This document shows, in pieces, positions 1,854 to 2,780 of a DNA stretch of 34,484 nt. The notes under the pieces are model-generated. The model was given only the letters and a program-made list of their open reading frames with translations. It made no database searches and was not told the origin of the DNA. Each line of letters starts with the position of its first letter. Position 1 is the stretch's first letter. Made by a program: the position numbers and the translations under genes. The DNA comes from an uncultured Dehalococcoidia bacterium (GTDB lineage: Bacteria; Chloroflexota; Dehalococcoidia; Lucifugimonadales; UBA3495). The stretch spans positions 1-34,484 of the forward strand of contig CATMOE010000040.1 in NCBI GenBank assembly GCA_950072105.1. The letters run 5' to 3'.

Positions 1854-2681
1854 TCAAATTTCCATCGGTGTATCTTCCCGGTTGGCCCATTCAAACATGG
1901 ATGCGTCGTAATTCCGGGCGTGTTCGAAGCCCAGCATCCGAAGTACAAAGGTGCCGTGCGCCGCACGGAGGCCGGCCTGTCAATAGGCGAAGATGGCCTT
2001 GTCCGGGGTTATCCCGTGGCTGTCCAGGATCGAGTGCATCTCTTGAGGAGACTTGAATCGGTGAGTGTCCCGGTCCATCAGGTCGGACCATTCCAGGTGA
2101 GCCGCTCCGGCAACGTGACCCTTCCGCTGGCCGCGGCGGTCGACCGTGCCATCGTATTCTCCTGACGTCCGAGTGTCCCAGTTGACCACATCCGGAAGGC
2201 GGCAACCCGCCAAGACTTCTTCCATCTCGACGATCAATGACTTATCGACGTGGGAGGTGAAGATTACGTCCTGGTTTATAACGGCCCGGTCAAAGCTCAC
2301 CGGGCTGCCTTCGCCGGACCAGCGCCGCCAGCCTCCGTCAAGGATTTTCACGTTGGGGTGACCGTTGTAGTTCATGACCCACCAGAATCGGGCGGCGCTC
2401 AGACTCATATTATTATCATAGACCACCACCGTCGTGTCGTCGCCGATGCCGAGAGCCTGGCAGGTGGCCGCAAATCTTTCTGGCGGGAAAGTGTGCACCA
2501 ATCCGGTTTCCGGATCCCTCTCATAATTATCCAGCAACATGACCGCGCCCGGAATGTGTCCCCTGGAGTAACCGGCTTCGGTGTCGATGTCCAAGACCAC
2601 AACATCAGCGTCTTCCCGGTGGGACTGGACCCAGGCTGGGTCGACCAGATATTCAGGGTGAGCGAATCCGTGGGTTGTCAT
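1854..2681 (-). CDS. Tandem-domain rhodanese / sulfurtransferase (SseA/TST-like), probable selenoprotein with Sec at TGA 1980-1982; 275 aa
   Basis: GHIPGA, VVVYD...AARFWW, ILDGGW and GHVAGA motifs. Reading through the TGA gives AY-U-QAGLRAAHGTFVLRMLGFEHARNYDASMFEWANREDTPMEI*, the normal rhodanese active-site loop and C-terminal YDxSxxEW signature. Confidence 0.9.
1954..1968 (-). promoter_or_regulatory. Candidate bacterial SECIS hairpin
   Basis: On the mRNA: UGA-CAGGCCGGCCU-CCGUGC-GGC-GCACGG. A 6-bp GC-rich stem starts 11 nt after the UGA and its apical loop begins with G. Confidence 0.65.
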
Positions 2682-2751
2682 ATCTCTCCTGTTGGATGAG
2701 TCACGTTAATATGATTGACAGGACCGCAGTACGTGGTGGAGGCTGCCCGGA

Positions 2752-2780
2752 ACTATAAATGTGTGTCCCCAAAGTGTCAA
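2752..2780 (-). promoter_or_regulatory. Sigma70-type promoter for the sulfurtransferase (possibly also ptrB)
   Basis: TTGACA (2780-2775), 17 nt spacer, TATAGT (2757-2752) on the minus strand. Confidence 0.65.

Follow-up and report, generated by a model that had tools for sequence, protein, structure and literature searches.

Does a sulfurtransferase gene that appears to end just before its catalytic residue represent a broken gene, or is its internal UGA read as selenocysteine (Sec)? This question is raised by a locus on the minus strand of the window, i.e., the whole 34,484-nt stretch of DNA that was analyzed here (contig C40 of the Dehalococcoidia genome G000; Table 1). Translation with table 11 from the ATG at 2681 halts after KAIFAY, residue 233, at the TGA at 1982-1980, and the same frame continues for 41 further codons (QAGLRAAH...PMEI) up to a closing TGA at 1856-1854, just as the original prediction had read the ORF track. 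We infer, with a probability of about 0.95, that the TGA at residue 234 is decoded as Sec by SelB-directed insertion, which would yield the full-length enzyme, and that the gene is an intact predicted selenoprotein gene that has been mis-annotated.

Table 1. Positions, in the window, of the features assigned to the sulfurtransferase locus.
Feature	Position	Strand	Evidence
CDS, 275-aa two-domain rhodanese (TST/SseA, COG2897 type), predicted Sec at residue 234	1854..2681	-	translation, Pfam, PDB matches, AlphaFold
In-frame UGA at the catalytic Cys column (U234, loop U-Q-A-G-L-R)	1980..1982	-	alignment to Cys enzymes and homologues
Putative bacterial SECIS-type hairpin on codons 238-243, 11 nt past the UGA	1954..1968	-	fold, synonymous constraint, pair counts, published rules
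41 codons past the UGA: active-site helix, last strand, C-terminal rhodanese signature	1857..1979	-	AlphaFold model and alignment
Shine-Dalgarno-like AGGAG, 4 nt upstream of the ATG	2686..2690	-	read by eye from the sequence
Sigma-70-like promoter candidate, 11/12 consensus matches, 17-nt spacer	2752..2780	-	consensus scan

The protein predicted across the UGA

Pfam PF00581 matches two stretches of the read-through product and one stretch of the product without read-through, and matches to the PDB entries 1uar, 3aax and 1e0c span residues 5-275 of the read-through protein. In the alignment, the U234 column coincides with the Cys of YCRIAER/YCRIGER in 1uar, 3aax and 3hwi, which supports the earlier proposal of a two-domain sulfurtransferase with UGA at the catalytic Cys position; alignment and structural model both place this residue in the C-terminal one of the two rhodanese domains. 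The AlphaFold model, for which Cys was substituted for Sec and an alignment of 46 sequences was used, has a mean pLDDT of 93 and a TM score of 0.90 to the Thermus rhodanese 1uar. In this model, residue 234 sits at the end of a strand and is followed by helix 238-249, strand 255-261 and helix 262-266, and a stop at the TGA would therefore remove the catalytic residue, the active-site helix and the last strand. D259 and W265 are invariant in 47 aligned sequences. Upstream of the gene, the scan that yielded the promoter candidate in Table 1 returned two sigma-70-like sites, against 0.7 expected.

All 120 of the database homologues listed cover no more than 85% of the query, and the 233-aa truncated product of this gene is itself present in the protein database, in agreement with the earlier claim that standard pipelines would call the gene truncated. 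Gene callers cut the protein short because the apparent internal stop almost certainly encodes Sec. The annotation is thereby corrected for a gene, from an abundant marine group, whose product ends immediately ahead of the catalytic residue in hundreds of database entries. The stretch occurs in public metagenome runs of marine, subsurface or vent origin.

Conservation of the UGA and of the hairpin behind it

Conservation of the TGA was examined in a relatives set of 40 genomes (G000 itself and members of its genus, family and order), in which 69 matches passed a threshold of E 1e-30; those relatives that carry a name belong to the Chloroflexota, the majority to Dehalococcoidia. The best 37 matches, which come from 31 genomes and have identities down to 38%, each carry one TGA, and the other 32 are without it. 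The TGA was found at column 234 in 34/34 close homologues checked (the remaining 3 of the 37 TGA matches lay outside the check), and 30 of these 34 keep the stem of the hairpin described below, so that the predicted sharing of TGA and hairpin among relatives was largely upheld. In the relatives alignment, the 41 codons past the TGA are conserved as protein and coding conservation is seen on both sides of the UGA. The alternation of Cys and TGA that had been anticipated at the catalytic column was also observed, as the homologue alignment contains both TGA rows and Cys rows there.

Contigs assembled from the independent runs X3 and X13 and from the RNA run X15 bridge the codon, with all differences accounted for and none at the codon, and for the contigs of run X14, 11 of 12 differences are listed, again with none at the codon. 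A TGC or TGT at this position, which would have pointed to an assembly error, was thus not seen in the contigs of these runs. The RNA contigs from X14 and X15 cover the gene; such contigs show neither strand nor level and may be DNA.

These data bear on the reading that the TGA is a true stop, leaving a pseudogene or a 233-aa non-catalytic protein, or else an assembly error. A true stop would fit the 233-aa length given in public databases, the occurrence of private nonsense TGAs in this genome and the weakness of the hairpin. Against this, the TGA is kept in 31/40 related genomes together with a conserved downstream coding sequence, it is present in contigs of independent runs, and in the model truncation would take away the catalytic residue and its helix. 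We therefore consider a true stop or an assembly error extremely improbable.

Each of the 31 TGA-bearing genomes contains at least one of selA and selB, and 29 contain the two together. In a phylum sample of 301 genomes, 55 of which match at 1e-45, a TGA copy was found in 7 genomes besides G000, and selB was present in 6/6 further TGA-bearing genomes tested. Three genomes that are 95-97% complete (G267, G339 and G198) carry Cys versions only, and selB was looked for in them and not found; searches of G038 (85% complete) for selA and selB gave no match. The link with the Sec machinery is one-way: selB occurs alongside Cys copies in G331 and G046, and of the 9 close relatives that carry no TGA copy, 8 nevertheless possess selB. 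In a quick IQ-TREE tree, the Cys rows L064, L066 and L069 are nested among Sec rows, which suggests that they may represent Sec-to-Cys reversions, in a part of the tree where long branches meet.

A separate observation concerns the codon preceding the UGA (window 1983-1985, minus strand), which reads TAT in 49 and TAC in 3 of the 56 TGA rows, a count that includes duplicates. The same pre-catalytic codon in Cys rows is TAT in 8/33 and TAC in 16, and the TAT usage of the genome is 0.29. A 5' context effect on read-through is a possible explanation for the TAT bias before the UGA.

The hairpin geometry that had been proposed was confirmed on the sequence: an 11-nt spacer is followed by a 6-bp stem (+12..+17 / +21..+26, CCGUGC/GCACGG) with the loop GGC, which can alternatively be described as a 5-bp stem capped by C-GGC-G. 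According to the accessible passages of PMC13188914, the bacterial SECIS model allows a loop of 3-9 nt, a stem of 4-16 bp, a spacing of 16-37 nt and an energy <= -7.5 kcal/mol, with G in the first two loop positions and the pattern N1-G(G/U)-N-N2. By these rules, the hairpin (energy -8.0 to -8.5 kcal/mol) agrees with the model in loop size, stem length, loop G, spacing and energy. Compared with the consensus in the same passages, it is minimal, with a single short stem, a spacing and a stability close to the lower limits, and no conserved lower stem. Structure alone is ordinary, with folding z-scores of 0.07, 0.26 and -0.16 for three fragments; the 50-nt fragment folds otherwise, and RNAalifold, run on the alignment of 34 sequences, returned no consensus pair. 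Folding energy was dropped as support for the hairpin because the z-scores are near 0 and RNAalifold gave no consensus. A generic scan for hairpins past TGAs was also set aside as too permissive, since 1356 of 13361 open-flank TGAs (about 1 in 10) pass the loose rule.

Codon usage in the stem is more informative. Given the peptide LRAAHG and the codon usage of the genome, the probability of a complete 6-bp stem with G in the loop is 0.0015. Codons A241, A240 and R239 take ranks 1-3 of 65 conserved 4-to-6-fold columns for use of a single fixed codon, with frequencies of 31/31, 29/30 and 31/34 against backgrounds of 0.30, 0.30 and 0.12, respectively; the fixed R239 codon is CGT, a rare Arg codon. 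At least 5 of the 6 stem pairs are formed in 47/51 TGA rows versus 2/33 Cys rows, as counted on distinct contexts after 5 duplicate contexts had been removed. The codons CGT GCG GCG are used by 43/43 Sec rows that encode RAAH and by 0/3 Cys rows that encode the same peptide. When the structure is taken as given, 93.6% of cells are paired and 6 cells are changed on both sides; none of 500 shuffles was as high and all slid controls were lower. Two-sided change is found in only 2 of 6 pairs, which 66/500 shuffles reach, and these changes are also non-synonymous (Ala/His to Ser/Asn), represent few independent events and come from sequences that are kin.

Loop variation stays within the SECIS model except in L035; in L034 and L043, the second loop base is changed from G to U (GGC to GUC), as the G(G/U) rule permits. 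The stem is broken in 4/34 rows (L010, L028, L032 and L035), of which L035 pairs 4/6; in the other three, a different hairpin is present about 8 nt downstream of the usual place, its GUG loop lying at +26. Three GrdB-type TGA genes of this genome show the same c-GGC-g loop at +19. Moreover, public-run contigs with unlike flanks match only about 1954-1987, the segment containing the UGA and the hairpin, an independent sign that these are the most conserved DNA of the gene. The case for the putative SECIS is therefore one of conservation, i.e., sequence constraint, and not of stability, and the hairpin is predicted to be a real, minimal SECIS.

Selenocysteine machinery and other in-frame TGAs of the genome

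A selABCD system had been predicted from the UGA, and selA, selB, selD and tRNA-Sec were all found in the genome. A search of its contigs identified selA (E 2e-134), selB (E 6e-105) and selD (E 2.5e-115), the last of which has its own in-frame TGA, along with a tRNA-Sec (selC) carrying a UCA anticodon. The genome is 92% complete and 6% contaminated, and the sel genes lie on contigs other than that of the window (selA on C17, selB on C10, selD on C60 and selC on C5), but relatives have them too. According to the proposed mechanism, SelB carrying Sec-tRNA would bind the short hairpin 11 nt past the UGA, and Sec would be inserted at residue 234 to give the full 275-aa two-domain sulfurtransferase.

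Decoding of the UGA as Cys or Trp, by a variant code or near-cognate read-through, would be another route to a full-length protein. Cys at this position would also give an active enzyme; no positive support for such decoding was found. This gene and most homologues use TGA as their normal stop, a dedicated tRNA-Sec, SelA, SelB and SelD are present, and the hairpin codons are fixed in TGA genes only, all of which argue against it and make this reading very improbable compared with insertion of Sec.

The genome appears to be rich in selenoproteins, with about 30 predicted genes when SelD and two sulfurtransferases are counted. This census was drawn from 36 TGA read-through candidates picked by eye among 170 listed of 299. 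Twenty-seven of the 36 candidates fall into the following families: UGSC (6), GrdB/PrdB-type (4), GrdA (1), OsmC (3), SelW (2), deiodinase-like (2), AhpD (1), DUF3179 (3), Prx/Trx-like (2), single-domain rhodanese (1) and ABC substrate-binding (2). At G000:C1:197308 and 197566 (plus strand), a single frame contains two in-frame TGAs (FYD-TGA-YT and VNG-TGA-GG) with coding-like sequence on both sides. By way of background, two Dehalococcoidia genomes are among the ten richest that BSepDB lists, with 49 and 46 selenoprotein genes (PMC13326102).

In contrast to the TGA in the sulfurtransferase gene, two other in-frame TGAs tested in this genome were not conserved in homologues. C6:86740-87039 (L095; TGA at C6:86824), which encodes a small family-restricted protein and has a hairpin, was considered as a new selenoprotein gene and rejected, as the TGA occurs in 1/17 homologues; since the other 16 are without the stop, it is probably a private nonsense change. 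A pilin-like ORF in the window (9790-5363, minus strand) was also rejected, most of its homologues being read through without a stop. It ends at a TGA at 9229-9227 (minus strand), in frame with a 1,287-codon repeat-rich ORF, and this TGA appears to be a private nonsense mutation within a giant pilin-like gene, not a Sec codon. C32:5093-5542 (L105, YCII-domain) and C7:48894-49739 (L122, short-chain dehydrogenase) each have an in-frame TGA and no good hairpin, and are probably broken genes.

Possible chemistry, paralogues and known families

Sulfur-transfer activity is predicted from the fold. On the NCBIfam model for 3-mercaptopyruvate sulfurtransferase (MST equivalog NF008557), the protein scores 132.6 bits, below the cut-off of 250, and no specific activity can therefore be assigned from the family. 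By analogy with other rhodaneses, the enzyme could act by double displacement, in which the Sec selenolate would take a sulfane sulfur from a donor such as thiosulfate, a persulfide or mercaptopyruvate (as outlined in the accessible text of PMC9369223). The bound sulfur would form a selenenyl-sulfide, where the usual enzymes form a Cys persulfide, before being handed to an acceptor, which may be a thiol, thioredoxin, sulfite or cyanide.

The gene could also be recoded, as proposed here, and yet handle a different cargo, either selenium for selenophosphate synthesis or another electrophile, or serve as a thiol-type reductase; the selenium-cargo reading is compatible with Sec recoding. Passages in PMC9369223 describe in vitro binding of Se by a Cys rhodanese, as a perselenide and in a 1:1 ratio. 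The loop found here is without the basic residues that, in human TST, directly follow the catalytic residue and bind thiosulfate. The host, with some 30 predicted selenoprotein genes, would have a use for selenium. Against a selenium cargo, the gene on C40 is not beside any of the sel genes, and Cys orthologues with the loop CQGGIRAAH persist in G267 and G339, where selB was not found, which suggests that the job of these enzymes is not tied to Sec synthesis. On balance, a cargo other than sulfur is considered unlikely, and sulfur transfer by a Sec enzyme is preferred.

The gene is flanked by genes for oligopeptidase B, an HbpS-like protein, a cupin and a luciferase-like monooxygenase. As a clue to the substrate this neighborhood was uninformative, since among 48 related loci the first three flanking genes recur only in two genomes of the same genus; gene neighbors are not conserved beyond the genus. 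The peptidase S9 (oligopeptidase) gene (window 1802-1, minus strand) has the same orientation as the sulfurtransferase gene, begins 52 nt beyond the stop of the latter and is cut off by the contig end. A single contig from an RNA library, which may be DNA, spans both genes.

Specificity in the tandem rhodanese family is determined by the active-site loop. No match to U-Q-(A/G)-G-(L/I)-R was seen among the characterized enzymes compared. In many relatives, two Sec sulfurtransferase genes lie head to tail, one with the loop UQAGL and the other with UQGGI (L018, L020, L023, L046-L049, L051 and L052); the gene in the window belongs to the UQAGL subclade and has no adjoining UQGGI partner. A second Sec paralogue in this genome (C10:62791-63612; L010) is 54% identical and has the loop RAANSV, and it is this paralogue type, represented by L010, L028 and L032, that is without the usual stem.

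A broader and rather speculative reading, to which we give limited credence, is that these Chloroflexota genes form an ancient, duplicated clade of Se-dependent sulfurtransferases with undescribed chemistry. Since the codons of the specificity loop also form the putative SECIS, the RNA and the protein would then each limit changes in the other, and paralogues could alter the loop either through paired amino-acid replacements that preserve the stem (Ala/His to Ser/Asn) or through a shift of the SECIS about 8 nt downstream (RAANSV). Adjacent QAGL/QGGI pairs might be two specialized enzymes in one sulfur relay for deep-ocean organosulfur breakdown, and the chemistry might involve a selenenyl-sulfide intermediate and a donor outside those described.

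The original prediction held that Sec-containing rhodanese-like proteins are known in general; this stands, and the novelty was overrated in that the two-domain COG2897 Sec family is itself catalogued. In the accessible passages, a Sec-containing COG2897 rhodanese-related sulfurtransferase is among 15 new families from the Sargasso Sea in 2005, with 3 sequences and a predicted SECIS in Figure 3 (PMC1088965), recurs as cd01449 and COG2897 in the GOS 2008 survey (PMC2398784), is present in Olavius symbionts (PMC1976440), and is listed in reviews, i.e., the 2022 and 2026 catalogues (PMC9312934, PMC13188914). The last of these describes the family as "form 4, UxxG", "predicted with high confidence" and not "experimentally verified". 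Searches with exact phrases, mostly outside subscription journals, found no paper naming a Sec rhodanese or Sec sulfurtransferase, and literature searches on SAR202 with selenocysteine or selenoprotein found nothing relevant. The representatives MQG53192.1, MCY3690685.1 and AACY01016424 were not among the database cluster members listed, and the available entries of the BSepDB supplement (PMC13326102) included no rhodanese; the BSepDB family tables may bear on how fully the clade is already catalogued.

The gene is thus a real, mis-annotated predicted selenoprotein gene of a family predicted two decades ago, and not a new kind of system. With the Sec COG2897/SseA family, as far as the published passages describe it, it shares the two-domain SseA type, a single Sec, the UxxG motif (here U-Q-A-G) and a SECIS right after the UGA, and domain type, Sec position and motif suggest that it belongs to the same clade. 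The lineage survey, the codon-level test with its Cys-reversion control and the paralogue pairs go beyond those passages, and what is new here is this codon-level control, together with the paralogue pairs, the putative SECIS in its shifted position, and Cys orthologues from genomes in which the search gave no selB. The gene would be a well-controlled target for a first Sec rhodanese assay, with the Cys orthologues of G267 and G339 as natural same-loop enzymes for comparison. By comparison with the Cys tandem-domain sulfurtransferases (Thermus thermophilus 1uar, Mycobacterium CysA2/CysA3/SseA, Azotobacter 1e0c, E. coli SseA 1urh and bovine TST), the modeled protein has the same fold (TM 0.81-0.90), domain order and catalytic position at 27-34% identity, whereas Sec would replace Cys and the loop is UQAGLR instead of CRIAER/CRIGER or, in the accessible text of PMC9369223, CRKGVT.
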